Positions 6,609 through 51,201 of a stretch of DNA of 64,000 nucleotides are shown here, piece after piece. The stretch lies in NCBI GenBank assembly GCA_965221165.1, contig CBDCRP010000003.1:707735-771734 (forward strand). Direction: 5' to 3'. Numbering within the stretch: the stretch's first letter is position 1; each line of letters begins with the position of its first letter. The DNA comes from a bacterium. Its GTDB lineage: Bacteria > UBA8248. The position numbers and the translations under genes were made by a program. Below the pieces are notes generated by a model, which saw only the letters and a program-made list of their open reading frames with translations, made no database searches and was not told the origin of the DNA.

Positions 6609-7010
6609 ATGACGCATGACGAGGCGGTGGCCTTCCTGAGCGAGCAGCACTACGGCGTCCTGAGCACCCTGCTCGAGGACGGGAGATCGCACCCCACGCC
6701 CATCGTGTTCGACTACAAAGAAGGAGTCGCGGAGATTTCCATGACGTGGGACCGCGTGAAGGCCAAAAACCTGAAGCGCGACCCCAGGGCAACGCTTTGC
6801 GTGATGCCGCAAGACAGCTTCTATCCCTACCTCTGCGCGGAAGGCGAGGCAGAACTCATCGAAGACCCGGACGGCACGAAAAACCTCGACCTCTACAGGC
6901 GCATCACCGGAAAGGACCCCGACGACCTCGATGAATACTTAGGAGCGATGAAAAACGAGAAACGACTCGTGGCCAGACTGAGCGTCAAGAGGATGTATCC
7001 GATTGGGTGA
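6609..7010 (+). CDS. pyridoxamine 5'-phosphate oxidase (PPOX) family protein, possibly F420-dependent class
   Basis: 133 aa. The pattern ...HYGVLSTLLEDGRSHPTPIVF...ISMTWDRVKAKNLKRDPRATLCV... is typical of the split-barrel PPOX family. Confidence 0.7.
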   Translation: MTHDEAVAFLSEQHYGVLSTLLEDGRSHPTPIVFDYKEGVAEISMTWDRVKAKNLKRDPRATLCVMPQDSFYPYLCAEGEAELIEDPDGTKNLDLYRRITGKDPDDLDEYLGAMKNEKRLVARLSVKRMYPIG

Positions 7011-7068
7011 GCCGGCCCTCGTTTGTGTTATGATTCGAAGTGAACCCACCAAATAAGGAGGATGCTTC

Positions 7069-7383
7069 ATGGCCGTCACCGCAATCGTCCGTTTCCCGTT
7101 TCCTGAAGAAAAAAGCGAGGAGGAGCTGGTTGCTGGTTTCGAGAGTTCGTCGGCCCTCTACCGCGATGTACCGGGCCTCTTGCGTAAATACTATCTGTTG
7201 TCCGAGGACCGGCGGACCGGGGGCGGGGTCTATATCTTCGAATCGCGCGCCGACGCCGAGCGCGTCCATGACGACGTATGGCGCGCCAGGCTGCGCGAGC
7301 GCATGGGAGTCGAGCCCGAGGTCCAATACTTCGACTCGCCCGTCATCGTCGACAACGAAGCCAAGGCCGCTTCCACCGCATAA
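7069..7383 (+). CDS. YdhR-like putative monooxygenase (dimeric alpha/beta barrel), copy 1
   Basis: 104 aa with AAGGAGG 7 nt upstream. The GGGVYIFES motif matches GGIYLF in E. coli YdhR as I remember it. Confidence 0.7.
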   Translation: MAVTAIVRFPFPEEKSEEELVAGFESSSALYRDVPGLLRKYYLLSEDRRTGGGVYIFESRADAERVHDDVWRARLRERMGVEPEVQYFDSPVIVDNEAKAASTA

Positions 7384-7395
7384 GGAGGGTGCTCT

Positions 7396-7713
7396 ATGGC
7401 CGTCACCGCAATCGTCCGCTTCACGCTTCCCGAGGGGAAGACCCACGAGGAGATGGCCGCGGCCTTCGAGAGGTCGGCTCCTCTCTACCGCGACGTGCCG
7501 GGGCTGGTGCGCAAATACTACCTGGTGTCGGACGACGTGCGCACCGGCGGCGGGGTCTATCTGTTCGAGTCGCGCGCCGACGCCGAGCGCCTCTACGACG
7601 ACGCCTGGCGCGCCGGGCTGCGCGAGCGCCTCGGAGTCGAGCCTACGATCGAATACTTCGAATCGCCCGTCATCGTCGACAACGAGGTCGGGGCGATCTC
7701 GACCGCGTCCTAG
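7396..7713 (+). CDS. YdhR-like putative monooxygenase, copy 2 (tandem paralog)
   Basis: 105 aa. The same RBS and the first 23 nt of coding sequence are identical to copy 1 (atggccgtcaccgcaatcgtccg). Confidence 0.7.
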   Translation: MAVTAIVRFTLPEGKTHEEMAAAFERSAPLYRDVPGLVRKYYLVSDDVRTGGGVYLFESRADAERLYDDAWRAGLRERLGVEPTIEYFESPVIVDNEVGAISTAS

Positions 7714-7818
7714 TTCGCGCGGAGGTTCTCTCCCTTTCGAGGATGTCTCCCGGGCGACTCGATGTATCCGCTCGTTCGTGTCCAGCAGGACGGAATAGTT
7801 GAAAAGGCGGGGGGCCAT

Positions 7819-8439
7819 ATGTTCCGGGCCAACGCGCTGACGCTCTGCATCGTCTTCCTGGTATTGGGCGTAGGCGGAAGAATCGCGCTTCAGTATGGAC
7901 TCACCGGCGACCACGGCATACGCCCGGTGCGGCGGAGCGCTTCCAAAACAGCCAAGTGCGCATGCGTTCTTCTGATTACATCGTTTATTGGGACGCTCGT
8001 TATTTCTCTGCTCGAAGCTACAGGAACGATTCGGCCGCAAATCCATCTCGGCGCGTCCGGGAACCTCATCGGCGCGGCAGCCTCTCTGGCCGGCATCACC
8101 ACCATGATAATAGCTCAATGGCAAATGGGGACAGCATGGAGATTCGGCGTCGATGAAACCGAGCAAACCGATCTGGTGACGAGGGGCTTGTACTCTCTCG
8201 TCAGAAACCCGATCTACAGCGGCGTGTTCCTGTTCGGCATCAGCTTGCTGGTATTGCTCCCACACGTATATATGCTGTTTTTTCTGATCCTGGCTTATCT
8301 GAGCATCGAGTTGCAGGTCCGCTTCGTGGAAGAGCCGCATCTTCATCGTCTACACGGCGCGGCTTACGAAAAATACGCCAATCAAGCCGGTCGCTATTTT
8401 CCAAGATTTGTTACCGGCTCCGGATTATCGGGGAAATGA
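7819..8439 (+). CDS. isoprenylcysteine carboxyl / phospholipid methyltransferase family membrane protein
   Basis: Multi-span membrane protein with the C-terminal motif LVTRGLYSLVRNPIYSG....EEPHL...G..Y..Y. I place the start at ATG 7819 (MFRANALTL...). Confidence 0.75.
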   Translation: MFRANALTLCIVFLVLGVGGRIALQYGLTGDHGIRPVRRSASKTAKCACVLLITSFIGTLVISLLEATGTIRPQIHLGASGNLIGAAASLAGITTMIIAQWQMGTAWRFGVDETEQTDLVTRGLYSLVRNPIYSGVFLFGISLLVLLPHVYMLFFLILAYLSIELQVRFVEEPHLHRLHGAAYEKYANQAGRYFPRFVTGSGLSGK

Positions 8440-8484: not shown

Positions 8485-9300
8485 TCAGCCTACGAGCGCC
8501 TCCAGACGCGCGCGGATTTCTTCGGGGAGAGCGTCGCCGCCGGATGCCGCCGCGTTCTCGCTCATGCGGCCCGTCCTGCCGGTGGCGGGAATGATGGAGG
8601 AGACGCTCTCGTCCGCAAGAAGGTATTTCAATAGCGCCTGCCCCGGCGTTCCGTCATGGTGGGCCTTCAACTCCGGCATACGGGCGATGCTGCCTCCCGG
8701 GCCGAGCAGGCCACACTTTAAGTGACTGAAAGGCCGCATGACGATCACGCCCAAGTCCATCTCCCGGGCCAAAGGCAGAACCTCCTCGCGGCACTTCACC
8801 TCGCCCAGATAGTAGGGTATCTGGATAGTGTCGTATGCGCCCGTCTTCATGGCTTCGATGAGTTCGGGGAAATTCTCCGGCCTTCTGTCGGTGATGCCGA
8901 AATGCAGGATTCTCCCCTCTTTTTGAAACGCCTGCATGGCGGGCGTCACCTCGCGCCAGCCCGCCATGTTGTGAATCTGCAACAGATCTATCACGTCCGT
9001 GCGGAGCCGTTTGAAGGAGCGCTCGATGCTCGCGCGGGCCGCAGAAGCGCTCGACTCCCACACCTTGGTCGCCAGAACGATTTTATCCCTGCTCCCGGCC
9101 AGAGCTTCGCCCAGCACCCGCTCCGATTCCCCGTATATGGGCGCGGTGTCGAAAAAATTGATCCCGCACGCCAGGCATTCGCGAACGATCTCGACGCACC
9201 GGGCGGGGTCGCTGCTCGCCATGTGCATGAAATTATGGGAAGTGCCCAGGCCAATCTCGCTCACGTGCAGCCCGGTCCTGCCGATACGGCGATGGTTCAT
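8485..9300 (-). CDS. aldo/keto reductase
   Basis: 271 aa. The N-terminus MNHRRIGRTGLHVSEIGLGT...INFFDTAPIYGESE..LG is a classic AKR N-terminus. Confidence 0.9.
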   Translation of the reverse strand: MNHRRIGRTGLHVSEIGLGTSHNFMHMASSDPARCVEIVRECLACGINFFDTAPIYGESERVLGEALAGSRDKIVLATKVWESSASAARASIERSFKRLRTDVIDLLQIHNMAGWREVTPAMQAFQKEGRILHFGITDRRPENFPELIEAMKTGAYDTIQIPYYLGEVKCREEVLPLAREMDLGVIVMRPFSHLKCGLLGPGGSIARMPELKAHHDGTPGQALLKYLLADESVSSIIPATGRTGRMSENAAASGGDALPEEIRARLEALVG

Positions 9301-9336: not shown

Positions 9337-10020
9337 TCATCCCGTCGCTCTCGTAAGAATCTCGCGGTAACCCTGGTACACCGCCTCCCCGTAGGCGGGC
9401 GGGGCGTGCACTTCGGTGAGCTTTCCGCCTTCTATCGTCTTATCCGACGCGTATGGGTTGAAGACGGCCTCTCCATCCGGGAAGATGAGGGTGGGACTCG
9501 TCATCGGCAGACCCTCCTCGTCCCTTAAGCGCATGGCTTCCCTGTAATCGTCCATTACCCCTTCTTCAAATACGCCCGATTCCAGGTCCGCGCCCACCCT
9601 GGAGCCATCGAGACCCGCCTCTTCTGCGATCTCGCAAAGAACCGAAACCTCATCCACGCGTCTGCCCTCATAAAAAAAACCGCGCCTGAGCTTCAAATCA
9701 TAGACGCGCGCCTTTACCGGGTCTTGCGCGTATGCGCTCGCGTAGGCCTGAAAGGCAAGCATCGTGGTTCTCAGGTATTCTTCGTGCGGCCAGCTTCGAC
9801 ACGGCGAGAGCGGCTCCTGAACCGCCACCAGGGGCCATTCCTGATCCACGATGTAGCGAGGCGCAGGCCGGTCGTTGATGACTTCCAGCGGGAACGCGCG
9901 CCACTTGAGATGCAGTTTGCCCTCGAAATCCGGCATCACCCTGTCCAGCCGCGCCGCGGCCAGGTATGCCCAGGGTCAATGGTATTCATGAAAAATCTCG
10001 ACAACCGCCATGTTCGTCAT
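9337..10020 (-). CDS. DsbA/FrnE-family thiol oxidoreductase with in-frame TGA (9976..9978) at the first active-site position: candidate selenoprotein (U-P-W-A), alternatively a nonsense pseudogene
   Basis: The track ORF 9337..9939 lacks the active-site strand. The same frame upstream reads MTNMAVVEIFHEYH-TGA-PWAYLAAARLDRVMPDFEGKLHLKWRAFPLE. GAGGG lies 6 nt before the ATG at 10020, and a stop at 10030..10032 closes the frame upstream. Confidence 0.6.
9945..9964 (-). promoter_or_regulatory. SECIS-like hairpin downstream of the UGA in the DsbA-family gene
   Basis: On the minus strand: CCUG-GCCGC [GGC] GCGGC-UGG, with 5 GC pairs extendable by G-U, U-G and C-G pairs. It begins 12 nt after the UGA. 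Folded by eye only. Confidence 0.4.
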
Positions 10021-10199
10021 CACATGCCCTCACTGAAAATAAGAATGCCCTATGAGCGAAAACAACGAAGTGAAGCGTCCCCTCTCCCCGATGATGTACA
10101 CCCCGGGTTCATCGAGGGCAAGTTGTTGCTCCACCCCGACCCCTCATACACCGGATACGAGGTATGGTATCATCCGGAAAAATGGAGGAGACCGCTGGA

Positions 10200-12754: not shown

Positions 12755-13288
12755 ATGGAGACCGTCATGAAGCGAACCCCTATTTACATCGCCGCCATCG
12801 TCTTTCTCGCCGTGTTCTGGACGTTTTATCAGGCAGGCGCATCGGGGCTCGGACCCGGCGCGCGCGCGCCCGAGCTCAAAGGCGGGCCCTGGCTGGGCGG
12901 CGAACCACTGAAACTCTCGGAATTACGCGGCAAGGTCGTGTTGCTCGACATGTGGACGTTCGCCTGAATCAATTGCGTGCGGGAGATCCCCACGCTGCGC
13001 TCGTGGCACGAGCGATATGAGGACAAGGGGCTGGTCGTCATCGGAAACCACGCGCCCGAGTTCAACTTTGACAAGAAAAAAGCGAACGTGGAAGAAGCCA
13101 TGGCCAAGCTCGGCATCAAATACCGCGTCGTGATGGATAATGAATTCACCAACTGGGACGCCTTTCAAAATCGCTTCTGGCCGACAAAATACCTGATCGA
13201 CAAAAAAGGCGTCGTGCGCTTCAAGACGATTGGAGAGGGCAACCACGCGCGCACCGAGGCGATGATCATGAAACTGCTCGCCGAATGA
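12755..13288 (+). CDS. membrane-anchored TlpA/DipZ-C-terminal-type redoxin with in-frame TGA (12965..12967) at the first Cys of the CxxC motif: candidate selenoprotein (U-I-N-C)
   Basis: Track ORFs 12755..12967 and 12977..13288 are in the same frame. The read-through product is ...LRGKVVLLDMWTFA-U-INCVREIPTLRSWHERYEDKGLVVIGNHAPEFNFD...WPTKYLIDKKGVVRF..GEG, a complete redoxin domain. The second half has no ATG or RBS of its own. Confidence 0.7.
12975..12995 (+). promoter_or_regulatory. SECIS-like hairpin downstream of the UGA in the redoxin gene
   Basis: GCGUG-C-GGG [AGAU] CCC-CACGC: 8 bp with one bulged C. It starts 8 nt after the UGA, and the apical loop lies about 18-21 nt from it. Folded by eye only. 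Confidence 0.45.
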
Positions 13289-14274
13289 TGGAAACCGAAG
13301 AAACGGCGCAACCGGCGAGCACCCCCGCCTATCCCTACTCGTCTCTCTTAAGGATCACCCACTGGCTGAACGTCCCCCTCCTGCTCCTCATGATGGCGAG
13401 CGGGTTTCAGATATGGTGGGCATACCCCGCGTTCGGGCCGGACAGGCCCAACCCGGAGGCCATCTTCGAATCACTGCGGGGCACGGAGGTACAGGCCGAC
13501 CCGCGCGCCATCAACCTGGGCGCCGACTACAGGGTTTTCGTCCAAGGCCTCACGAAAACCTTCGGCATCGGGGAATGGCTCGCGGGCGCGCTGCGCTGGC
13601 ACTTCGCTCTCATGTGGCCCTACACCATCAACGGGCTGATTTTCCTTCTTCTCCTGCTCTTGACGGAGGAAGGGAGGCACTACCGAATAAGGCAGGGAGA
13701 TTTCTCCGGCGCGAAGGAGATGCTCTTACACCCCATCAAAACCTTTCACCATCCTCCCGGAGAGGGAAAATTCAACCCGATACAAAAACTCGCGTACAAC
13801 ACCGTCATACTGGCCGGGGTGATGTCCGTCCTCACGGGTCTCGCCATCCTCAAACCCGTCCAGTTCAAGTGGCTGACCCGGCTTTTCGGGGGCTATCAGC
13901 CGAGCAGATTCCTGCATTTTCTCGTCATGTTGTTTCTCGTCATTTTCATGATCGGCCATTTTCTCATGGTGATATCCCACGGATGGCGGCGAGGGCTTGC
14001 ACCCATGATCGTCGGAATCAAGGCGGAGCGCGACGCTTTTCAGGCCAGACAAAGGCAATTCGCCAAAAATCTCGGCCGCGTAGCCGCCGAGGGAGCGATT
14101 CTGCTGGTTTCCTTTTGGCTCGGAACCCTCATCGCGGATATGATGAACGCAGCCTTGGGCGGCGAGGCATCGGGCGCGTGGTTCGGCGCGCTCGGCTACC
14201 TCTTCGTGCGGGCGGGCCTCATGCGAGGGGGGCGCATCGAAGGCTTTCGCTGGAAGCGAAGCCTCGGGAGTTGA
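13285..14274 (+). CDS. b-type cytochrome membrane protein (Ni/Fe-hydrogenase / thiosulfate-reductase cytochrome b-like)
   Basis: 329 aa with several TM helices. The N-terminal motif LRITHWLN and His residues in the helices match this family. The ATG overlaps the redoxin stop (ATGA at 13285..13288). Confidence 0.75.
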   Translation: MMETEETAQPASTPAYPYSSLLRITHWLNVPLLLLMMASGFQIWWAYPAFGPDRPNPEAIFESLRGTEVQADPRAINLGADYRVFVQGLTKTFGIGEWLAGALRWHFALMWPYTINGLIFLLLLLLTEEGRHYRIRQGDFSGAKEMLLHPIKTFHHPPGEGKFNPIQKLAYNTVILAGVMSVLTGLAILKPVQFKWLTRLFGGYQPSRFLHFLVMLFLVIFMIGHFLMVISHGWRRGLAPMIVGIKAERDAFQARQRQFAKNLGRVAAEGAILLVSFWLGTLIADMMNAALGGEASGAWFGALGYLFVRAGLMRGGRIEGFRWKRSLGS

Positions 14275-14278
14275 GCGA

Positions 14279-14569
14279 ATGAGCACGGAAGAACAAATGG
14301 AATTCATACTGCCGACCAAACTGGCGAAGCGTAGGCTTTTCGTGGGCAGGCTGGTTTTGAGCGTCGTTTGCATCAACGCGCTTCTCTCTCTCCTCGCCGC
14401 ATATCTGCTGAGCGGGCCGATGACCTGGCTAACGCGGTTTGAGTTCGGGTTCCTGGCCTGGGCCTCCATCTTATTCCCGACTTCTCTCGTTCTGGCGGTC
14501 CCGATAATGGCGCCCATCATCATTAAAATACTGAAATCCCCGCCTGCGTCCTCTGAAGAGAGAAGATGA
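14279..14569 (+). CDS. small hydrophobic membrane protein, unknown function
   Basis: 96 aa with 2-3 predicted TM segments. It is wedged between the cytochrome gene (4-nt gap) and the Mo-enzyme gene (4-nt overlap). Confidence 0.5.
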   Translation: MSTEEQMEFILPTKLAKRRLFVGRLVLSVVCINALLSLLAAYLLSGPMTWLTRFEFGFLAWASILFPTSLVLAVPIMAPIIIKILKSPPASSEERR

Positions 14570-15378
14570 AAAAAGGCGAAAAGCGAAACCCAGGCGTTGG
14601 CGTGGACAAGTCTTCATCGTCCCGGCGCGGATTCATGAAAATGCTCCTTGGCCTCGCCTCCGTATTCATGGCCGGGTGTTCCCGCCTGAACGAAGAGCCC
14701 AAGGTGCAGGCCGTCCTCAGTTGGTTCGATCGCCTGAACCACAAGGTGGGCCTCATGACGGACAGCAACCACCGACTGGCGCGCACCTACCCCAGAAGCG
14801 CCGTTCAGCCCGAACAAATGCGGCCCAACGGCTCGGTGGTCTCGCCGAACTCCCAGCTCATCCAGACGCCCCCCGAGAAGTGGCGCCTCGTCGTGGGGGA
14901 AGCCCATCTGCAAAAGGGCCGGATGATGAAAAGACACTGGGCCAGGGAATACACGCTTGCGCAGCTTCGCGAGATGCCCGTTCTCGAGCAGACGGTGGAG
15001 CACGTTTGCGTCGAGGGCTGGAGCGCCATCTGCCACTGGCAGGGAGTGCACCTCGCGCGCTTCATCGAGATGCACAAGCTCAGGCCCGAGAGCCGCTACG
15101 TGTTCTTCCTGTGCGACGACATGCTCGCCACCGCGAACGGGCACGAGCGCTACAGCGTGACGTTCGACTTAAAGCAGGCGATGCACCCGCAGAACGTGCT
15201 GGCGTATGAATACAACGGCGAGACGCTGCCCGTGAACCACGGCGCTCCCATCCGCCTCGCCTCGCCCGCGAACGTGGGCTGGAAGAGCGCGAAATTCCTG
15301 CGCTACGTCTTTTTCACGAACGAGGACCTGGGCGGATTATGGGAGAAGCAGGGGTATCCGCGCTATTATGGATTCTGA
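14566..15378 (+). CDS. molybdopterin-dependent oxidoreductase of the sulfite-oxidase/YedY(MsrP) fold, with Tat signal and lipobox
   Basis: Twin-arginine motif SSRRGFMKM followed by MAGC. Mo-domain motifs VCVEGWSAICHWQGV and NHGAPIRLASP. Confidence 0.85.
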   Translation: MKKGEKRNPGVGVDKSSSSRRGFMKMLLGLASVFMAGCSRLNEEPKVQAVLSWFDRLNHKVGLMTDSNHRLARTYPRSAVQPEQMRPNGSVVSPNSQLIQTPPEKWRLVVGEAHLQKGRMMKRHWAREYTLAQLREMPVLEQTVEHVCVEGWSAICHWQGVHLARFIEMHKLRPESRYVFFLCDDMLATANGHERYSVTFDLKQAMHPQNVLAYEYNGETLPVNHGAPIRLASPANVGWKSAKFLRYVFFTNEDLGGLWEKQGYPRYYGF

Positions 15379-15487: not shown

Positions 15488-15562
15488 TCCGGCGTAGCTC
15501 AACGGCAGAGCAATCGGCTGTTAACCGATGGGTTGTAGGTTCGAATCCTACCGCCGGAGCCA
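15488..15562 (+). tRNA. tRNA-Asn (anticodon GTT at 15520..15522), CCA encoded
   Basis: Cloverleaf drawn by hand: acceptor TCCGGCG/CGCCGGA, D arm GCTC..GAGC, anticodon arm ATCGG-CTGTTAA-CCGAT, T arm GTAGG-TTCGAAT-CCTAC, discriminator G, then CCA. Confidence 0.9.
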
Positions 15563-37156: not shown

Positions 37157-39898
37157 GTGCCCATGTTTGTTTGCGCTCCAGAAATGTGGCGTCATTTCAT
37201 CTCCGGTCTCCTCGGTCCAACCAAGAGGCAAGGCATGAGCGCGCGGGCGCCGATGGGCGCACTCGCCCTGGCGCTGGCCGCCGCGCTCGTTCTCGGCGCG
37301 GGTGAAGCGCAGGCCCAGACACCCGTGTGCAGCAATGCTCCCGAACCCGGGGAGCGGATAGAATGTACGGAGCCCGCCACTTCTATCGATGTTCCTATCA
37401 ACATCAACGTTCAAGACCTCACCATCGAGACGATGGACGCTGGCGCACACGGCATTCATGGCAAACATGAGGGCGAAGGCGCCATCTACATCGATGTCAC
37501 AGGAGGCGAGATCACGACGGAGAATTTGAATGCGCACGCCATCTATGGCTCGCATAGAGGCGCCGGCAACGTCGACATCTACGTGCAGGGCGCCGCCATC
37601 GAGACGATGGGCAGAACTGCCTACGGCATCCATGCCTATCATGCTGTCTCGCCAATCGTTGGCAACGTCGACATCTACGTGGAGAACACCACCATCGAGA
37701 CGATGGGCGCTAGCGCCTTTGGCGTCATCGGCTGGCACCAAGGCGACGGCAGAACCAACATCGACGTGAGGGACGCCACCATCACCACGGCGGGACGGAA
37801 TGCCTTCGGCGTCTATGGCCTTCACCAAGGCGACGTCACAACCAACATCGACGTGAGGGACACCACCATCACCGCGACGGGCGGGACAGCCCACGCGATC
37901 TTTGGCAGATCCCTAGGTACCGGCGACATCCACATCACAGCGAATGAGGTCGACATCACGACCGCTTCGAGCGGCGTCGTGGGCTTTGTTAATGACGACG
38001 GCGATATCACTATCGACGTTCTGGGCGGCTCCATCAAGACGACGGGTCGGCTTGGTTATGGCGTCTATGGCATCCATGCCACCGCGGGGATCACCGTAAG
38101 GATCGGCGACATCGACATCGACGTACTACGGGGCGCCACCATTGCCACGATGGGCGATAATGCCTACGGCATCTATGCCCATCATTATTTATTGCCAAGC
38201 GTTGGCGACATCGACATCAACGCTCGGGAGGGTAGCGCCATCACCACGACGGGCGCCGGCGCCCACGGCATCTATGCAGAGCATGATTCCGGCACGGGAG
38301 AGATCAGGATCGCCGTTCTCAATGGGGGCTCGGTCCACGCCGACGGGGCGGGCGCGAGCGGCGTCCGGGTGGGCAGCCTCAGCGCCCAGGGCGCCGTAGA
38401 GCGCGCCGCCGGGATGGACGAGGAGGGCTATCGCAGGCAGACGGTCACGGTGAACGGCCGGGTATGGGGAGGCACGGGCGAGGCGGCGGGCGTTTATCTC
38501 GCAGGCGGCGGGCGGGTCGTCATCGGCCCCCAAGGAAGCGTCGGCGCGGAATCCGGCATCGCGATTCTCGCTACGGGAGATACGCCGGGCGCCACCGAGC
38601 AGGATCCGCCCATCAAACCCAAGCTGTATCTCGCCCTGAATCCCGGCGGCCGCCGGTTGGCGGAAGTCATCGGCGACGACTATATCCTGAACGACGGGGG
38701 CGAAACCACCATCGTTCTCAACAACGTGAAGCTGCACGACGGCGCAACGGGCGCCACCGGTCTCACGGCCCCGAACGGGGCGTGGGACGTCACCATGCGG
38801 GCGGAGGGGAGCACGGTGGATCGCACGACGAACCCGGGGACGTTGACGCCGACCGAGCCGACCGCGGGGGTCATCGCCGATCGGGATTTCTCGGCAGGGG
38901 ACCTCGACGAGAAATACACACCACGGCCCATCCCCGCTTCGTCCGCGCCACAACCAGAACCGGAACCCGAGCCGCCGGTGGAACAGCTCACTTTCACCGA
39001 GGTCTACGCACCCCGCGCGGCTCTTTACGAGGCGCTTCCGGGGCTGCTGCTGCGGCTGAACGGAAGGGAACCGTTGGGGGGGAAACGTCTGGGGTTGCCC
39101 GGCCCGCCCGTTTGGGCGCGTCTCTCGGGAAGCAGGGGATCGTATGCGTCCGAGCGTTCGACTGTTGGTGCGGCGTATGACTTCAAACGCCTCATAGCGG
39201 AAGCGGGGCTGAACGTGTCGCTGGGCGAGAACCTCACCGGCTCGCTCTCGGCGCGCAGCGTTCAGAGTTCTGCGGACGTGGACTCACCAGTCGGCGGGGG
39301 GGAGATCGAGGCGAAGGGAATCGGTCTGGGGTTGGGGGTCTCCTGGCGCAGGGCGAGCGGTTATTACGTCGATGGTCGCTTCTCGCTGACGGACTACGAC
39401 GCGGAGGTTTCCTCCGACACGCGGGGGACTCTCGCGAGGGACGCCGACGCGCTCGCCCATTCGCTGGACGTCGAGGTGGGCAGGCGTTTCCAGATCAACG
39501 AGAAGATAAGTCTGACTCCCCGGGCGTGGCTGACGCGCTCGGCGATGGACGTCGATGCGTTCACCGACGCGGTGGACGCAAGGGTCTCGCTCGCAAAGGC
39601 TGTGAGGTTCACCGGCGGCCTGGGGGTGGTCACGGAGACCTTGCGCGTCTGGGAGGGCGGGGCGCTCTCCCTGCGCGGTTCCCTGGACATCGAGCAGACG
39701 CTGGACGACGCGGAGACGCTCGCCGACGTGTCGGGAACGAAGCTCGAATCGAAAGCCGCAAAGACCAAGCTCCTGCTCGGGCTGGGAGGCGTCTATCGCC
39801 GGGGCCGCTTCTCGATAAGCGGCGAGGTCTCGATGGGCGGCCTGGGTTCGGATGAGGCGCAATACGCGGGGCAGGTGACCATCGGGATGAGGTTCTAG
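37157..39898 (+). CDS. autotransporter (type Va) outer-membrane protein with a repetitive beta-helix passenger
   Basis: AAGGAGG lies 5 nt before GTG 37157; an alternative start is ATG 37235, just before the signal peptide ALALALAAALVLGAGEAQA. The passenger has about a dozen 29-32-aa rungs (..G..A.GI.G.H.G.G...IDV....I.T.G..). A PEPEPEP linker follows, and the C-terminal beta-barrel ends in GMRF. Confidence 0.9.
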   Translation: MPMFVCAPEMWRHFISGLLGPTKRQGMSARAPMGALALALAAALVLGAGEAQAQTPVCSNAPEPGERIECTEPATSIDVPININVQDLTIETMDAGAHGIHGKHEGEGAIYIDVTGGEITTENLNAHAIYGSHRGAGNVDIYVQGAAIETMGRTAYGIHAYHAVSPIVGNVDIYVENTTIETMGASAFGVIGWHQGDGRTNIDVRDATITTAGRNAFGVYGLHQGDVTTNIDVRDTTITATGGTAHAIFGRSLGTGDIHITANEVDITTASSGVVGFVNDDGDITIDVLGGSIKTTGRLGYGVYGIHATAGITVRIGDIDIDVLRGATIATMGDNAYGIYAHHYLLPSVGDIDINAREGSAITTTGAGAHGIYAEHDSGTGEIRIAVLNGGSVHADGAGASGVRVGSLSAQGAVERAAGMDEEGYRRQTVTVNGRVWGGTGEAAGVYLAGGGRVVIGPQGSVGAESGIAILATGDTPGATEQDPPIKPKLYLALNPGGRRLAEVIGDDYILNDGGETTIVLNNVKLHDGATGATGLTAPNGAWDVTMRAEGSTVDRTTNPGTLTPTEPTAGVIADRDFSAGDLDEKYTPRPIPASSAPQPEPEPEPPVEQLTFTEVYAPRAALYEALPGLLLRLNGREPLGGKRLGLPGPPVWARLSGSRGSYASERSTVGAAYDFKRLIAEAGLNVSLGENLTGSLSARSVQSSADVDSPVGGGEIEAKGIGLGLGVSWRRASGYYVDGRFSLTDYDAEVSSDTRGTLARDADALAHSLDVEVGRRFQINEKISLTPRAWLTRSAMDVDAFTDAVDARVSLAKAVRFTGGLGVVTETLRVWEGGALSLRGSLDIEQTLDDAETLADVSGTKLESKAAKTKLLLGLGGVYRRGRFSISGEVSMGGLGSDEAQYAGQVTIGMRF

Positions 39899-41441: not shown

Positions 41442-42386
41442 TCATACCAAAACACGATGGCCCTTCCATGAGGCCACAGATACGAAAACACACACGATGC
41501 CGGCCAGAGAATCCCAACCCGAGGTATGTCCTATTTTATCCAGCGCACGCAAAGCGGAATCCAAACGTGCTTCATCCGCCATACCCATCGCCGAAATCAT
41601 TTCATGCAAAGCCTGCGCACCCTGTCCCCTGGCCGCACACTCCAAATGCGCACAACTAATTTTATTCGTTCGCTCTGCGGCCTGATTCAATATGACGCTG
41701 GATACCTTCCTTAAAACATCGAAATATCCCAGTGCATACAACGCTATCATCACACCACACCAAAAATCATCTCCGGATGGCGTGAGTCCCGGGCCGAGGC
41801 CAACGAGCTTGTGATTGATGGAAGAAAATTCCAGGCTCTTCTCCCCATTGAGAGTACCTGAGAGCCAATTTCTAAAATCGGCAATCTCCTTCCAGGAAGT
41901 TTCTTGAAAAAAATCCTCACCTGAGACTTCCTCGCCGCTCACAATGTACGGGATAAGCGGGGCCAGACCCTCTCGAGGCCCTCTTTTTACTATCCTCTCA
42001 ACGGGAACTGAGAGGCTACGCCGAACATACCCAAAATCCCAGGCAACGGGCAGTGGCTCCGGTTTCCATTCTTCCCGCTGGGAAGTATCGATTCCCATGC
42101 TCGGACCGAACTGGATAAAACCATTTTGGATTGTGGCTCTACCTTTGGCGGCTATTTTCTTTCTTAAATCCATACCATCCGGGAATTCACAAAGCGCATT
42201 CAACGGTCCGGGCCCAATGCTCCATGCCCCGATGCACGCGAACTGCCCCGATGTATTTTCAACATACAAACTTCTGCGAAACACGCTGATTATTTTCGCT
42301 TCGCCCTGTAAGGCAAGAAATTCTTGAACAAATGCACCCACAAGAACCACTCGGAATGCATTCGGCATTATATGGGCTGGCATCAT
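41442..42386 (-). CDS. DUF2877 (AllH/YlbE-like) domain protein
   Basis: The motifs LVGLGPGLTPSGDDFWCG and GHTSGWDSLAG are the characteristic DUF2877 motifs as I remember them. Confidence 0.65.
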   Translation of the reverse strand: MMPAHIMPNAFRVVLVGAFVQEFLALQGEAKIISVFRRSLYVENTSGQFACIGAWSIGPGPLNALCEFPDGMDLRKKIAAKGRATIQNGFIQFGPSMGIDTSQREEWKPEPLPVAWDFGYVRRSLSVPVERIVKRGPREGLAPLIPYIVSGEEVSGEDFFQETSWKEIADFRNWLSGTLNGEKSLEFSSINHKLVGLGPGLTPSGDDFWCGVMIALYALGYFDVLRKVSSVILNQAAERTNKISCAHLECAARGQGAQALHEMISAMGMADEARLDSALRALDKIGHTSGWDSLAGIVCVFVSVASWKGHRVLV

Positions 42387-42410
42387 AAAATGATCATTTC
42401 ATCTCGCAAA

Positions 42411-42450
42411 GAAAATCCCCTCACCCTTTCGTGAGTGAGGGGATTTTTTC
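42411..42450. terminator. bidirectional intrinsic terminator closing the AAA_5 module
   Basis: AATCCCCTCAC (42414..42424) pairs with GTGAGGGGATT (42435..42445). T-runs follow on both strands (+ TTTTTC; minus TTTTCTTT). Confidence 0.7.
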
Positions 42451-42461
42451 ATTCACGATAC

Positions 42462-42797
42462 TTATGCACATCCAGGTCCTCTAACCTCACTCGCAGCAGC
42501 ACCAGATGGTACAAGCGTCTCGGCAAAGTTTGGATCGGCTTGTTGTTTCTCGACCAGTTGGCCTATTTGCGAGAGTAACATCTCACGTTTCATCAATCCC
42601 AAACGATAGATGCCCATCGGATTTACAAGTTTCATATAGTAATGGTTTCCAGGGTCATACTCCGCAGAGCAAGCAGAGGGTTTTTGGGCGATAGAGAGGG
42701 CATAGCTAAAAACATCCGCAAATTGAGCCAGCACTTCCTCATCATGTAAGTCTTCGGGTATTTCGGGAAATCTGGCCAAGAGTTCCTGGACGTTCAT
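42462..42797 (-). CDS. hypothetical protein (111 aa), no family recognised
   Basis: AAGGAG lies 8 nt upstream of the ATG. The composition looks coding. It is the last gene before the terminator. Confidence 0.55.
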   Translation of the reverse strand: MNVQELLARFPEIPEDLHDEEVLAQFADVFSYALSIAQKPSACSAEYDPGNHYYMKLVNPMGIYRLGLMKREMLLSQIGQLVEKQQADPNFAETLVPSGAAASEVRGPGCA

Positions 42798-42932
42798 CGT
42801 TAAAACTCCTTAAAGGGATGACTTATCTCAAGCGGAACGATTCATTAAGCTTATCATATATTGAACTGACTAGCTCTTTACCTCCCTGCTTTTCCAAGGT
42901 CGAAAAGGATGAACCCAATAAAAGTGTGAGGA

Positions 42933-44906
42933 TTACATTTCTCTGATGAACCTCGCAGCATAGCTTCTAATATTTTTTCCGTTGAGAACATGAAAACGAC
43001 GAACGCGGGCGATGGTTTCTCCAGAAAATCGACCAATGGGGATGTGAATTAAATGCTTTTTATATAAACGTGCGAACTGGCGCCAGCGTGTCTTGGGTGG
43101 GTGCGGGCTCACCAGAGCGATGAACCGTTCTTTCGAATGAAAACATGCTCCTGCAATCAATCGTTCGTCCAATGTCTGTGTGTAGTGAAATCGTGAATCC
43201 CGCCAGACATCCTCGATATATCGGGGAGGAAAAACAAAAAACGCCCCGCCATATTGTGATTCCGCGATCCCCGGACCCACCAAATTATCCTCAAACGGGG
43301 TAGCATACATACAGAGCGTTGATTCTTCACTATGTTCCGCATACCACATCGTACGCCAAGAATACTTCTCGGCATCCGCGGGCGTATCGAACAAAAAAAC
43401 GACAACCTCCAAATTCCCTCGTGCCGGGGGAATTTCTTTTACGTACAGGTCGCCCGTATGCCAGTTGCGGAGCGTTTTCCGCATATCAAGACCATCTTTT
43501 ATCGATGTCGTGAATTTTTCAGTACGGGCCAAATCCTCTCCCAATAGTGCCTTGGCCTGCTCGCGCACATGGGTATGAAAACTCTCTATCGCCTCATCTT
43601 CTGGCGGCCAGGAACACATACCGAAAGGATTCCACCTCTGGGCCCATTCCTGTCTTTCAAACGGAGTGGGTCTAGGTTTGAGGGAAATACGCCTCCAAAT
43701 AGCGGCAGAGCCACCCAACCGACTCTTGATCGTTCCGACGCCTATATCAGGGAATACCGCACGGATCATACCTACATGGACTAAATCACTTTCACTGGCT
43801 GAAGAGGTTTCACGCTGATACGGATATTTCCGCGCGGTCTCTAATAGTGCCAGAGCAAAAGCATCGCCTGCGGTCTGCTTAGCGGCAAGAGTGAGGGTAA
43901 ACAAATCCGGCGTCAATCTTCTCGCTTGAAGCGTCAAATTCCGGACGTATTGCAAGAAAACCTGAAGCCTTTGAGGCGTCACCCAGTTTTGCACGGGTCG
44001 ATGTTCTCTTAACCATGCCGTTCTCGCCTCCAATAGGAGTTCCTTGACACCGTCGATAGATAAATTGAAGTCACCAATGAATTCTTCGCGTTTTTTTTCG
44101 TATAAATAAGTCAGATAGGGAAACTCCCCCAAGAAAAAGGCCAAAGTACCTTCCGATACTCTATACCTTTGGGGCCGGTTGAGGGATATGTCTAAACGGG
44201 GCCCAAACAATTTTTTGTCACCAGACGGACCTTCTCGACAGGCTGAGTGAATCCAGGGCCAATCCATCGCAGAACACACGAAAACGATGCGCTTGTATCT
44301 CGCCTCGAGTTCGAGCAAGGCATCGGCCATCCAGCGGATTCTCGCAGCACGCTGTGATGAAGGAGGAGGCTTGGGTGCTACCGTCAAAAGAGACGCAGCA
44401 AAGGCTTCCATCGGTACTTTTTTGAGTACATAAGGATCTGGCAACACATGAACATCCTCATGAAATCGTTCCACTTCTAAATCTACAAAAAATCTGGGGA
44501 TACGTTCTCCCATTGCTACCCTGAGAGCTGAGATCACCGGCTGACAAGGATCAATCGGCACATAGTTATGGGAAGGCAAAACTGATTTATCCGCCATAAA
44601 CTCTTCTTGAGCGTTCAAATCATCCTCTGACTGTGGGTATTCATCCCATGACTCATCAAATTCCGCTTCACCTCCTTCAAAATATGATTGGGCATCCTCA
44701 TTCATCGACACCATGGAGACATATGGAAGGTTCTCAACACCTGCTTCTACCTCATCTTGAAAAGATGGCGGCAGAGGAACCGCAACGCAGTCAGGTTCAA
44801 ATTTCAAAATCCTATCCCGCACTTCGACGGCAAAGTCTCCCGACCCATGGATGACGGGAAGTACACTGATCCGATTGGTGATGCCCAGAAAATCTTGCGC
44901 GGCCAT
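42933..44906 (-). CDS. uncharacterised 657-aa protein with a TraB/ChaN-like N-terminal region (possibly DUF5682-like)
   Basis: The N-terminal region contains VLPVIHGSGDFAVEVRDRILKFEPDCVAVPLP and RAARIRWMADALLELEARYKRIVFVCS, split by an acidic insert (EDAQSYFEGGEAEFDESWDEYPQSEDD). The start lies 2 nt after the ATPase stop. Confidence 0.7.
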   Translation of the reverse strand: MAAQDFLGITNRISVLPVIHGSGDFAVEVRDRILKFEPDCVAVPLPPSFQDEVEAGVENLPYVSMVSMNEDAQSYFEGGEAEFDESWDEYPQSEDDLNAQEEFMADKSVLPSHNYVPIDPCQPVISALRVAMGERIPRFFVDLEVERFHEDVHVLPDPYVLKKVPMEAFAASLLTVAPKPPPSSQRAARIRWMADALLELEARYKRIVFVCSAMDWPWIHSACREGPSGDKKLFGPRLDISLNRPQRYRVSEGTLAFFLGEFPYLTYLYEKKREEFIGDFNLSIDGVKELLLEARTAWLREHRPVQNWVTPQRLQVFLQYVRNLTLQARRLTPDLFTLTLAAKQTAGDAFALALLETARKYPYQRETSSASESDLVHVGMIRAVFPDIGVGTIKSRLGGSAAIWRRISLKPRPTPFERQEWAQRWNPFGMCSWPPEDEAIESFHTHVREQAKALLGEDLARTEKFTTSIKDGLDMRKTLRNWHTGDLYVKEIPPARGNLEVVVFLFDTPADAEKYSWRTMWYAEHSEESTLCMYATPFEDNLVGPGIAESQYGGAFFVFPPRYIEDVWRDSRFHYTQTLDERLIAGACFHSKERFIALVSPHPPKTRWRQFARLYKKHLIHIPIGRFSGETIARVRRFHVLNGKNIRSYAARFIREM

Positions 44907-44908
44907 AA

Positions 44909-45883
44909 CTAATCGTCTTGTTGGGGGTGCAATGGGCTATCGTCACCAAAGAAAAGATCGCCGAAATCAAGTGGTGGTGGCTCATCGCCGAGGGCTTGTT
45001 GTCTTCTACGCGCCAGATCTTTCAAGTCCAACGCATCATCTCCTAAAACCTTGGTGAGCGACTCTCTCCACGCTTCGTCTTGAGCAAGTGGATGATCTGA
45101 GTCCTGCGCGAGACGTTTAAGCGCGAATTGAAGGATATGGATTCCATCCCGAGGGGAATATTCAAGGTCCAGTTCATGGGCTTCCTGTAAAAACTCCACT
45201 GTCAGGGCCAACATCTCATTGGGAGCAAACGGCAAGTGATACTTGAGGATAGCCAGTTCATCATTTTTGTTTGGAAATTCAAGCCCTAAAGTGGGTTGCA
45301 GTCTCGAGAGAATATAATCGGGCACCTCGTACGTTGAAGCATCTTCGTTCATGGTCACGCAACAGCGAAAATCTGGGTGTGCCTTCACCGTTGCACCCGC
45401 TACGATGGACTCCACATAACGGCGATGATCGAGCAATGGTGCCAGTGAGGCCCAACTTTTTTCGCTCATCCGATTTCCTTCATCCAGCACACAGACCCCT
45501 CCCCTTATCATCGCTGTAACAAGAGGCGATGCGTGATAGATAATTTTTCCTGATTCCGCCAACACGGGTGTGATCAAGAGATCCTCAGGACGCGTATCAG
45601 AAGTGCACTGAAAAATATAAAGCTCTTGGTTTCTCTCCCGCGCCGCCGCCATCGCCAGTGTTGTTTTCCCGATTCCCGGAGGACCAATAATTCGCGGAGA
45701 GAGAGAAAAATCCTCTTCCGCGACAACCAGCCAGCAGGCGTGAAGCTGGCGCAGAACCTCTATCTGGCCGATCCATTCCTGATCAGCATCGATGTGTCTG
45801 CTCAGGTGTAGGAATACCCCTTCAATTTCCACCAACCCCACCCCTAATTTTTCATTGACTGATGTCTTCTCATGCACAATCAA
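44909..45883 (-). CDS. AAA+ ATPase, AAA_5 (MoxR/CbbQ/NorQ-like) type
   Basis: Walker A GPPGIGKT and Walker [10 protein letters not shown], followed by TMNED. It appears to start at TTG 45883 or, with the better RBS (AGGAG 6 nt upstream), at GTG 45877. Confidence 0.85.
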
Positions 45884-45951
45884 CTCCTACGTCCAAAATC
45901 CCACCGTAAAAGATAATGACATCTCGCTCTTATCATTCGGGAATATCTTCT

Positions 45952-46698
45952 TTAATCGGTAAAATACCCTCCGTTTACATCCAGTGCTTCACCAGTGATA
46001 TGCGCAGCGTCCTCACTAGCGAGAAATAGAGTGGCTGGAACCAATTCCGAGGCCATAGCAAACCTTCCCATTGGATGTTTCGCCAGTGCTTTGTTGTATA
46101 AATCCGGGCCGAATTCCCGCATTAAAGGCCCATCAATCGGCCCGGGAACTAAGCAGTTCACGGTCACTTTCGTTTTCGCTAATTCGCGAGCGAGGTTGAA
46201 CGTCATGGCTAAAATACCACCTTTTGAAGCCGCATATGTGAGATTATAGCCCAGCCCCCCTGATTTCCCAGCCCCAGAACCATATAGAATAATTCGCCCC
46301 GCCGGAGAATTCATGAGTGCGGGCATCGCCCCTTGAATGCAAAAATAAGGCGCTAAGAGATTCACGCGAAGCGCGCGCTTCCAATCAGACGCATCAAGCG
46401 AGAGCGGGGCTTTCACCAACATGTTCGCCGCTGTGTGAATGAAGACATCACATCCACCAAGCCATGCGATTGCTTCTTTGGTCATGGTCTTCACCTCATC
46501 AAAATTTTCCAAATCACAGGGTATCTTTTTCATCATCTCACGGGATCCTGAGATGAGGTGCAACTTTTCTGAATTTCGACCCGTGGCGACGAGTTTCGCC
46601 CCCGTATTCAGAAATCCCTCAACAAGCGCTTTGCCTACATCTCCCGTGGCCCCGGTCAGAATTACCCTTTTGCCCTGAAAATCAAAACGAAGCGCCAT
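45952..46698 (-). CDS. SDR family oxidoreductase
   Basis: I place the start at MALRFDFQGKRVILTGATGDVGKAL. Catalytic Y-x3-K is present (YAASK). Confidence 0.85.
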   Translation of the reverse strand: MALRFDFQGKRVILTGATGDVGKALVEGFLNTGAKLVATGRNSEKLHLISGSREMMKKIPCDLENFDEVKTMTKEAIAWLGGCDVFIHTAANMLVKAPLSLDASDWKRALRVNLLAPYFCIQGAMPALMNSPAGRIILYGSGAGKSGGLGYNLTYAASKGGILAMTFNLARELAKTKVTVNCLVPGPIDGPLMREFGPDLYNKALAKHPMGRFAMASELVPATLFLASEDAAHITGEALDVNGGYFTD

Positions 46699-46853
46699 CC
46701 CGCTTCCCTCGAAAACCGGTGACCCAACTTTCAGCAAGCCCCCTGCCCTGATATATATCGAATAAGATACAATATCGACTGAAGAATAACATTCTTATAG
46801 GGAATCACCTTGTAGCCGCTTCATATGCAACAGGAACACTGTGGAGAGTACTC

Positions 46854-48119
46854 ATGAATTTGTTTGATGAACTTAAAATCCGCGGCTTAGTCCGTGATCA
46901 CACGGATCAAGCGGAAATGCTTAGTGCTTTTGAAAAAGGCGGTATGAGCCTCTATAGCGGCTTTGACCCTACGTCCGACAGTTTGCACGTCGGGAATTTG
47001 GTTCCCATTACAGGACTCATGCGTTTTCAACGCGCGGGCCACCGGCCGATTGCGCTCATCGGCGGTGGAACCGGGATGATAGGAGACCCATCGGGAAAAT
47101 CAGAAGAACGAAACCTTCTAAAGGCAGAAGTTTTAGAACACAACCTCAGAGGAATCAGGGCCCAGTTCGAGAGGTTCCTGGATTTTGATGCAAGTCCCAA
47201 TGCCGCTCGGATGGTGAACAACGCAGAATGGCTGAACGAGATTCACCTCATCGATTTTTTGCGCGATGTAGGCAAACATTTTTCTATCGGCTACATGATG
47301 GCGAAAGAATCCATTAAGTCACGCATCGCCAACGCGGGAATATCATACACCGAGTTCAGTTATATGGCGCTTCAGGCGTATGATTTTTTGCACCTGTTCG
47401 AAAAAGAAAATTGCACCTTACAAATCGGCGGCTCTGATCAATGGGGTAACATCACAGCAGGCATCGAGTTGATTCGGCGGGTTCATGGAAAACCCGCATA
47501 CGGAATGACTTTCCCGCTCATCACGACTTCCGATGGCAGGAAATTCGGTAAAACAGAAAAAGGCAATATCTGGTTGGACCCAAAGCGAACCAGTCCATAC
47601 CGATTCTCGCAATACTGGATTCAGACAGACGACAGGGATGTCGGCAGGTTTTTAAGATATTTCACTTTTTTATCGATTGACGAGATCGATGAAATTGAAA
47701 AAGAACACCTCAAGTCTCCGGAGAAACGAGAAGGACAACGTCGCCTCGCAAAGGAGCTGACGACGCTCGTACATGGCAAAGCCGCAGCGCGGAGCGCGGA
47801 GCGCGCCGCCAAAATTCTTTTTGGAGTTCAACTCGATGGCATTGAGGAAAACGATTTACTCTCGGCGGCAGAGGAAATGCCAAGAACCCTGCGATCAGGA
47901 GCACCACCATATCCGCTAATAGATACCCTGGTGGAAACCGGACTTTGCAAGTCGAAATCCTTGGCGCGAAAAGACTTAAAAGGCGGTGGCATCTATGTGA
48001 ACAATCGCCGTATTACGGGAGAGGGCAGTATGTTATCTGTCGATGATATATTGTTTGGTCGGTACATTCTCCTTCGGAAGGGAAAAAAGAACTACCATCT
48101 GATAGAATGTCATCCATAA
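46854..48119 (+). CDS. tyrS: tyrosine--tRNA ligase
   Basis: 421 aa with a HIGH-type motif (DSLHVGNL), a KMSKS-type motif (KFGKT), GGSDQWGNI, and a C-terminal S4-like domain. Confidence 0.95.
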   Translation: MNLFDELKIRGLVRDHTDQAEMLSAFEKGGMSLYSGFDPTSDSLHVGNLVPITGLMRFQRAGHRPIALIGGGTGMIGDPSGKSEERNLLKAEVLEHNLRGIRAQFERFLDFDASPNAARMVNNAEWLNEIHLIDFLRDVGKHFSIGYMMAKESIKSRIANAGISYTEFSYMALQAYDFLHLFEKENCTLQIGGSDQWGNITAGIELIRRVHGKPAYGMTFPLITTSDGRKFGKTEKGNIWLDPKRTSPYRFSQYWIQTDDRDVGRFLRYFTFLSIDEIDEIEKEHLKSPEKREGQRRLAKELTTLVHGKAAARSAERAAKILFGVQLDGIEENDLLSAAEEMPRTLRSGAPPYPLIDTLVETGLCKSKSLARKDLKGGGIYVNNRRITGEGSMLSVDDILFGRYILLRKGKKNYHLIECHP

Positions 48120-48260
48120 GCAGATACAAGAATCGTCATTCGCCGCATTTTGCAGGAGAGATGAGTGAATCTTCTTGAAAATCCCAAATCACCAGAAGAT
48201 GGTGAAGATGAATTTGCTTCTCGGCCTGCGTTTAGGATTTCCTGAAACAACCCTTCAAGT

Positions 48261-49538: not shown

Positions 49539-49588
49539 ACGGACGATTTTCCTCAGGAAAGCCAAGTAGCCCACGCCATCAGACGAAG

Positions 49589-50989: not shown

Positions 50990-51201
50990 TCGCTCTCGGA
51001 TACAGATGAGCGATCGCGCTCAGCGATTGATGGAACATGCGCTTTTTTTTGAATCAACCGCCCAAGAGAAAATAGAATGACTGCAGAACCTAAAATGACG
51101 AGTTGGAGCGCATAGGCCGAAGGGTTCAAAATTCCGATGAGCAGCGCAATGCCGCAATCCACCATGGCAAGAATTTGAAGGGCTCGTCCCAAGCCATACA
51201 T
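50986..51201 (-). CDS. small two-span membrane protein (71 aa)
   Basis: Two hydrophobic helices (ILAMVDCGIALLIGIL and LVILGSAVILFSL). Its start shares one base with the aminotransferase stop (TAATG at 51199..51203). Confidence 0.5.
   Translation of the reverse strand: MYGLGRALQILAMVDCGIALLIGILNPSAYALQLVILGSAVILFSLGRLIQKKAHVPSIAERDRSSVSESE

Follow-up and report, generated by a model that had tools for sequence, protein, structure and literature searches.

A DsbA/FrnE-like gene with an in-frame UGA

The 64,000-nucleotide stretch analyzed here, hereafter the window, is part of contig CBDCRP010000003.1 of assembly GCA_965221165.1 (positions 707,735 to 771,734). On its minus strand lies a gene for an oxidoreductase of the DsbA/FrnE type in which the codon at the catalytic cysteine position, the fifteenth, is an in-frame UGA that we propose to be read as selenocysteine (Sec, U). 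A hairpin resembling a selenocysteine insertion sequence (SECIS) follows this UGA inside the coding sequence (CDS), an aldo/keto reductase (AKR) gene lies downstream of the stop codon, and a redoxin-like gene with a UGA of its own is found nearby. The coordinates of these features are collected in Table 1.

Translation from the ATG gives 14 sense codons, MTNMAVVEIFHEYH, then the UGA, then PWAYLAAARLDRVMPDFEGKLHLKWRAFPLE..., and the frame beyond the UGA (PWAYLAAARLDRVMPDFEGK...) is open without a break until the ordinary terminal TGA; on the upstream side the frame is closed by an in-frame TGA. A mechanically produced list of open reading frames (ORFs) calls only 9337..9939, with a GTG start and a length of 200 amino acids. 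An earlier annotation made from the letters alone (the sequence-only reading) had proposed that this ORF is a DsbA-family gene shortened by the ORF caller and that extending it restores the N-terminus of the family. Both proposals are borne out, and the positions it gave for the ATG, the GAGGG, the upstream stop and the internal TGA are all correct on the minus strand. At the Shine-Dalgarno spot, GAGGG or GAGGA is present across the aligned genome loci, the exceptions being GGGGG (L015) and other purine-rich spacers (L016, L017).

With Cys substituted for the in-frame stop, the protein matches the Pfam family DSBA (PF01323) over residues 6–166, beginning at profile position 1 (E 2.6e-12; 47.4 bits, against a cut-off of 25.6). 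Since this match opens upstream of the TGA, the domain continues across it and the TGA is not there by chance. The extension regains strand β1, which starts at residue 5, as well as the active site, and it sets the TGA on the catalytic Cys column. The 227-residue protein lacks a signal peptide and is matched by no NCBIfam model; a scan for promoters and terminators around the gene found none.

Among solved structures the nearest in sequence is Deinococcus radiodurans FrnE (5cnw, E 4e-8), in which VDIWSDIACPWCYIGKRRF aligns with VEIFHEYH-U-PWAYLAAARL, so that the TGA falls on Cys22, the nucleophilic first Cys of CPWC. Alignment to more distant homologues gives the same answer, as the sequence-only reading had anticipated in placing the UGA at the first active-site Cys. 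Scanning metagenomes yielded 72 Cys homologues (29–53% identity over the best matched segment), every one with Cys at the TGA column; their motifs are CPWC (63), CPWA (6) and CPWS (3), a mix biased by the scan pattern. The pattern held a Cys codon and could return Cys homologues only, and we use this set as a control. HMMER, run exhaustively against 1.84 billion cluster representatives, found just 167 relatives. Among the best 30 full-length representatives, Cys again occupies the TGA column in 30/30, and the fourth motif position is Ala in 20, Ser in 5, Gly in 2 and Cys in 3, CPWA being the commonest motif (14/30). Because CPWA is common among the nearest Cys representatives, the U-P-W-A of the window protein is the Sec counterpart of the site that is normal for the subfamily. 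The Ala at the resolving position, described as unusual in the sequence-only reading, is therefore unusual relative to classical DsbA/FrnE and to the catalogued UxxC selenoproteins, but not within the subfamily, where 27 of the 30 nearest Cys representatives have Ala, Ser or Gly. A CxxC dithiol is absent from all 25 clade members, which have the Sec codon at position 1 and Ala at the resolving position, and the protein would thus appear to work as a single-nucleophile relative, like most of its nearest Cys homologues.

An AlphaFold (AF2) model of the part after the UGA alone (pLDDT 85.5, pTM 0.84) has as its best Foldseek matches FrnE, DsbM (a cytosolic disulfide reductase), HCCA isomerase, kappa-class glutathione S-transferase (GST), YjbH and Rv2466c; the modelled fold places the protein in the cytoplasmic branch of the DsbA superfamily. 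The T-S-P-T motif with Pro176, presumed to form a cis-proline loop, aligns to G-T-P-T and G-S-P-H in homologues. A near-invariant cysteine, Cys74, is conserved in 86/88 members of the U-P-W-A clade; P0065, the CPWA/CPWC homologues and the remaining Sec clades (P0064, P0076, P0166) do not have it.

The upstream codons and the UGA are maintained together across relatives. With tblastn, residues 1–227 were matched across the TGA in 19 species-representative genomes, which are metagenome-assembled genomes (MAGs) labelled 'Nitrospinota', 'Nitrospinaceae' or 'bacterium', several of them complete chromosomes of 3–4.5 Mb. Together with six further contigs they make up an orthologue set of 25 distinct sequences (52–94% amino-acid and 58–95% nucleotide identity). 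All 25 read ...A-V-V-E-I-F-H-E-Y-H-TGA-P-W-A-Y-(M/L)-A-A-A-R-L, and each keeps the 14 upstream codons and the TGA. At upstream codons 5–14 the residue is conserved in 23–25 of the 25 sequences while two to three synonymous codons are used per column; constant residues with synonymously varied codons show that this segment is translated and under protein-level purifying selection ahead of the 'stop', so that selection acts on both flanks of the UGA. The internal stop is TGA in 26/26 related genes, whereas the terminal stop varies (TGA 22, TAA 2, TAG 2). TGA also serves as the most frequent ordinary stop of the window, closing 24 of its 50 predicted genes, and it ends this gene too; the recoding is therefore local, with the genetic code unchanged.

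Protein databases conceal this arrangement. A search found 65 relatives, of which the close ones (51–87% identity) are no longer than about 208 amino acids and start at MAAARLD... or later, just past the TGA; query coverage is at most 92% in all 65. As called, these database entries lack the N-terminal strand; the DNA of 25/25 orthologues nevertheless retains the upstream codons.

Outside the window's clade, sister-clade genes also carry an in-frame UGA at the active site: L024 (1635..2216) and L104 (1001..1576), both U-PWC, and L103 (73..723), U-PWS. The database proteins P0064, P0076 and P0166 begin just past the active site, and their DNA has an in-frame TGA at the Cys column. Several 'truncated' representatives are thus Sec forms, which means that Sec arose or was retained in several branches of the family. 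Comparison at this column finds both UGA-bearing clades and Cys homologues, with no Cys inside the group of 26 TGA genes. About a dozen further cluster representatives begin at the same point as the truncated Sec forms, and may themselves be undetected Sec forms.

Table 1. Features of the locus, numbered by position in the window.
Feature	Position	Strand	Details
DsbA/FrnE-like CDS (predicted selenoprotein)	9337..10020	minus	227 codons including Sec15, plus stop TGA 9339..9337
ATG start codon	10020..10018	minus	Same column in 23/25 distinct orthologues; start elsewhere in the other two
GAGGG, Shine-Dalgarno-like	10031..10027	minus	6 nt 5' of the ATG; overlaps in-frame TGA 10032..10030
UGA, codon 15, predicted to be read as Sec	9978..9976	minus	Nucleophilic position of U-P-W-A, N-terminus of helix 1
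SECIS-like hairpin	9963..9945	minus	5' arm 9963..9956, GGC loop 9955..9953, 3' arm 9952..9945
Cys74 codon (TGT)	9799..9801	minus	EPLSPCRSW motif; candidate resolving residue
Pro176 of the T-S-P-T loop	9493..9495	minus	Presumed cis-proline loop; invariant alignment column
AKR gene	8485..9300	minus	Pfam PF00248, E 7.7e-37; begins 36 nt past the stop of the DsbA-like gene
TlpA/redoxin-like gene (selenoprotein candidate)	12755..13288	plus	N-terminal membrane anchor; UGA 12965..12967, WTFA-U-INC

A hairpin specific to the UGA-bearing genes

Positions 9964..9945 fold as.((((((((...)))))))) at -11.3 kcal/mol, with the first pair at the 13th nucleotide past the UGA. The conserved core consists of 6 bp (9961..9956 paired with 9952..9947), extended to 8 bp in the window, and every member of the window's clade has the hairpin GGCCGC-GGC-GCGGCU, beginning 14–15 nt past the UGA. 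The apical loop is 20 nt from the UGA. Local minimum free energy (MFE) is -12.5 kcal/mol in the window and ranges from -7.0 to -12.5 across the 25 sequences, 24 of which are at or below -7.5. A published model of the bacterial SECIS (bSECIS) requires a loop of 3–9 nt, a stem of 4–16 bp, a G in the first two loop positions, a spacing of 16–37 nt and an MFE of -7.5 or lower (PMC13188914); 24/25 sequences satisfy these constraints, and the remaining one (L008, -7.0) is narrowly outside the energy limit.

The hairpin is preserved at the level of codons. Codons 21–26 (A-A-A-R-L-D) vary less in synonymous codon choice than any other run of six codons in the gene (synonymous entropy 0.12 bits, mean 0.80 bits), and the three fourfold-degenerate Ala codons in the hairpin are invariant, compared with 0.9–1.4 bits at other conserved Ala columns. 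The changes that do occur in the core leave it intact: in L020 a G-C pair is replaced by U-A through a compensatory Ala-to-Ser and synonymous CGG-to-AGG change, and in L008 (G-C to G-U) and L025 (G-U to A-U) the substitutions are wobble-compatible. Cys homologues provide a control. Of 54 distinct Cys homologues, none is able to pair all six core positions in this register, and the local MFE averages -4.6 kcal/mol among them as against -10.1 in the Sec clade. These 54 retain A-x-x-R-L with mixed codons, Arg being encoded by CGC in 29, CGT in 8, CGA in 7, CGG in 6, AGA in 3 and AGG in 1. The U-PWS gene L103 keeps the outer GGCCG/CGGCU stem around a different loop, UGUAU. The sequence-only reading had pointed to a SECIS-like hairpin at this place, and what we find there has bSECIS geometry, is synonymously frozen and is specific to the TGA-bearing genes.

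Decoding of the UGA and alternative explanations

We consider it very likely, judging from these sequence comparisons, that the locus is a real 227-codon gene for a cytoplasmic DsbA/FrnE-type oxidoreductase with Sec15 as the catalytic nucleophile of a U-P-W-A site. A neighboring gene behaves in the same way. The sequence-only reading had argued from two such cases within 3 kb, and the second is real: in the redoxin-like gene the UGA forms a U-x-x-C motif, and Pfam matches to AhpC-TSA and Redoxin extend across the TGA. A hairpin at 12975..12995 (-12.1 kcal/mol, z -3.2, loop AGAU) lies 16 nt from that UGA, and the in-frame stop is conserved in 16 syntenic relatives. A scan of the window for in-frame TGAs found a redox motif combined with domain continuity in the DsbA-like and redoxin genes only. 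Two independent, conserved UGAs of the Sec/Cys type within 3 kb support Sec decoding by this organism.

Indirect support comes from what is known of a probably related lineage. BSepDB places genomes of the GTDB phylum UBA8248, labelled 'Nitrospinota/Nitrospinaceae/Nitrospinae', among the ten richest bacteria, with 48–54 selenoprotein genes (PMC13326102). One of these UBA8248 genomes, bin107, is a symbiont of the sponge Aplysina aerophoba with a G+C content of 59.5%, similar to that of the window, and it encodes two copies of SelA and one of SelB (Table S4 of Slaby et al., 2017; PMC5649159). From the labels of its relatives and its G+C content, it is plausible that the window belongs to a lineage of this sponge/UBA8248 type, and the lineage is probably one already known as selenium-rich.

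Several results weigh against Sec decoding. Neither selA, selB or selD nor a tRNA-Sec was found within the 64 kb of the window or in sequence flanking the related loci, which were searched by tblastn with Escherichia coli SelA, SelB and SelD (window and all fetched loci), by ARAGORN and Rfam, and by Pfam on about 50 window ORFs. The lineage argument holds only if the window is a member of the sponge/UBA8248-type group, and the cultured Nitrospina gracilis lacks SelA and SelB in the same Table S4 (PMC5649159). As to the hairpin, formal covariation is weak, with one compensatory pair and an observed score reached by 34/500 shuffles, and the distant Sec forms L024 and L104 show weak hairpins. The folding energy of the 48–51 nt past the UGA is no better than that of shuffled sequences (z -0.9; range -0.9 to +0.5), and we therefore rejected folding energy as evidence for a SECIS. 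In such GC-rich sequence with an unexceptional z, the hairpin is supported by conservation and not by energy. No Rfam SECIS family matched, a permissive threshold near the site giving chance snoRNA-like matches alone. Given that bacterial SECIS elements are diverse and often mutually unlike (PMC13188914), a missing Rfam match is unsurprising.

These points have to be set beside what other explanations of the UGA would entail. Were the UGA a true stop, the product would start at codon 20 or at the GTG at 9939 and would lack strand β1 and the active site, the 14 upstream codons being a leader or a tiny upstream ORF. This agrees with the way all 65 clade proteins are called in the database, short and with at most 92% query coverage, and with an ATG at codon 20 in 18/25 sequences. 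Codon 20 is nevertheless CTG or CTA in the window and six relatives, and no Shine-Dalgarno-like purine run precedes it, whereas a conserved ATG and Shine-Dalgarno sequence stand before the upstream codons, which vary synonymously while their residues are preserved. The Pfam domain, moreover, opens before the TGA, and the short product would miss the redox center that is present in all 102 Cys homologues. We regard termination at codon 15 as extremely unlikely. An error of sequencing or assembly for TGC or TGT, or a pseudogene, has a negligible probability: TGA is one base away from either Cys codon and the data are mostly MAGs, but the identical TGA recurs in 26 independent assemblies from differing projects and sequencing technologies, the gene is otherwise intact and evolves under purifying selection, and the neighboring redoxin gene behaves alike. 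Its presence in 26/26 genes effectively refutes this explanation.

The remaining possibility is that the UGA is read through without Sec, either by near-cognate Trp or Cys suppression at a leaky UGA-C or by a lineage-wide reassignment of UGA. UGA-C is a weakly terminating context, C follows the UGA in every copy, and no Sec machinery was found in the window. The C is, however, imposed by the Pro codon, and reassignment is contradicted by TGA being the main ordinary stop of the window (24/50) and ending this very gene. Insertion of Trp or Gly at what is the catalytic Cys column would kill the enzyme, and if Cys were what is needed there, TGC and TGT lie a single mutation away, yet 0/26 genes have either. 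Nor would read-through of this kind account for a hairpin of SECIS geometry that is synonymously frozen in the UGA forms only. We judge it very improbable, and take Sec insertion as the basis for what follows.

Relation to known enzymes, proposed chemistry and neighboring genes

DsbA-like selenoproteins (COG2761) with a UxxC motif were part of the Sargasso Sea selenoproteome reported in 2005 (PMC1088965), and a 2026 review of the prokaryotic selenoproteome distinguishes a 'DsbA-like form 1' (PF01323, UxxC) from a form 2 with DxxUP; 'UxxA' is absent from its text (PMC13188914). The window protein resembles form 1 in belonging to PF01323, in having Sec first in the CxxC-equivalent at the start of helix 1, in carrying a SECIS-like element just downstream in the CDS, and in having widespread Cys homologues. 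It differs in its U-P-W-A motif and its near-invariant Cys74, a distinction that is drawn from the published description of form 1 (examples NIP15863.1 and AACY01178397). As the window clade has UxxA while the sister Sec clades have U-P-W-C (L024, L104) or U-P-W-S (L103), the window clade is a motif variant of the catalogued family. What is new here is a Sec-containing UxxA clade with a clade-specific Cys74 within a known selenoprotein family; the recoding is that of the ordinary bacterial Sec pathway.

Among characterized proteins, FrnE, a cytoplasmic DsbA-like disulfide oxidoreductase (PDB 5cnw, 5co3, 5xwh), ranks first in sequence as well as fold comparisons (Foldseek E 2e-5, TM 0.62), and its N-terminal strand and C-P-W motif align residue for residue with the window protein. 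FrnE nevertheless shares only about 20% identity, contains no Sec, and has CPWC and a C-terminal Cys tail, whereas the window protein ends at residue 227 tail-less. The uncharacterized monothiol CPWA, CPWS and CPWG proteins (for example P0065 and P0070) share the fold and the single nucleophile, and P0070 also shares H-C-P-W-A-Y; they have Cys in place of Sec, are 30–39% identical and lack Cys74. The hairpin, compared with the E. coli fdhF-type and consensus bSECIS, is likewise a stem-loop in the CDS right after the UGA with a small, G-initial apical loop, and its spacing, stem and stability lie within the model. It has no sequence similarity to the fdhF-type element and a loop of just 3 nt (GGC), and recruitment of SelB by it is a prediction.

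The course of events that we propose is the following. Translation would initiate at the ATG at 10020, the hairpin within the CDS would recruit SelB with Sec-tRNA(Sec), Sec would be inserted at codon 15, and the ribosome would continue to the ordinary terminator UGA at 9339..9337. The selenolate, predicted to lie at the N-terminus of helix 1 opposite the T-S-P(176)-T loop, would attack an electrophile such as a disulfide or a mixed disulfide. As Ala occupies the resolving position, the motif itself could not resolve the resulting selenenylsulfide intermediate, and a group elsewhere would have to do so. This could be a low-molecular-weight thiol from outside the protein, as in DsbM, kappa-class GST and HCCA isomerase, which have the same fold and use glutathione; by analogy with these, the window protein may use a thiol of this kind. 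Kappa-class GST has Ser at the nucleophile position. The other candidate is the clade-specific Cys74.

A more far-reaching proposal, which we advance tentatively and think rather unlikely, is that the U-P-W-A clade constitutes a distinct, uncatalogued type of DsbA-like selenoenzyme. In such an enzyme a lone selenolate and the helical-domain Cys74 would form an inter-domain selenenylsulfide in place of the CxxC disulfide, a redox center unlike that of every characterized DsbA, FrnE or DsbM, possibly serving an AKR pathway. As a natural Sec version of the uncharacterized monothiol CPWA DsbA-like enzymes, the protein would offer a handle on the function of cytoplasmic single-nucleophile DsbA relatives. 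The practical consequence concerns annotation. Each of the 65 database entries found for the clade is truncated, lacks the active site, and carries the label 'DsbA family protein' or 'hypothetical'; because Sec forms also underlie the truncated 'DsbA-like' proteins of three or more sister clades, the selenoproteomes of selenium-rich lineages are under-counted by standard pipelines.

The AKR gene follows the DsbA-like gene on the same strand, no terminator-like site was found between the two, and they are probably co-transcribed. In the distant relatives L026 and L027 an AKR gene also comes after the DsbA-like gene, with a TPR gene in between. This linkage may point to a common function in detoxification or redox chemistry. 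Directly downstream of the AKR gene is an ORF of 453 amino acids (6985..8346, minus strand) with no Pfam match and modest coding statistics.

On the plus strand, the redoxin-like gene heads a cluster (12755..15378) that continues with a cytochrome b561-type gene (13285..14274) and a molybdopterin 'Oxidored_molyb' gene (14566..15378). The gene order is reminiscent of a periplasmic repair module of the MsrP/YedY type in which one partner is a selenoprotein. ARAGORN reports a tRNA-Pro(GGG) at 14748..14824 on the minus strand, inside the Oxidored_molyb ORF; it is not found by the Rfam tRNA model, which reports tRNA-Asn at 15488..15559 alone, and the call is probably a false positive.

Elsewhere in the window, G+C content drops from about 60% to 48–51% over roughly 10 kb (~41500..52000), in a stretch that contains tyrS (46854..48119), genes for an MFS transporter and an AAA_5 ATPase, and two large ORFs (42933..44906 and 49589..50989) that match no Pfam family. 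A 913-amino acid protein with a C-terminal autotransporter β-domain (37157..39898, plus strand) is encoded where the G+C content of the window is highest (~67%).

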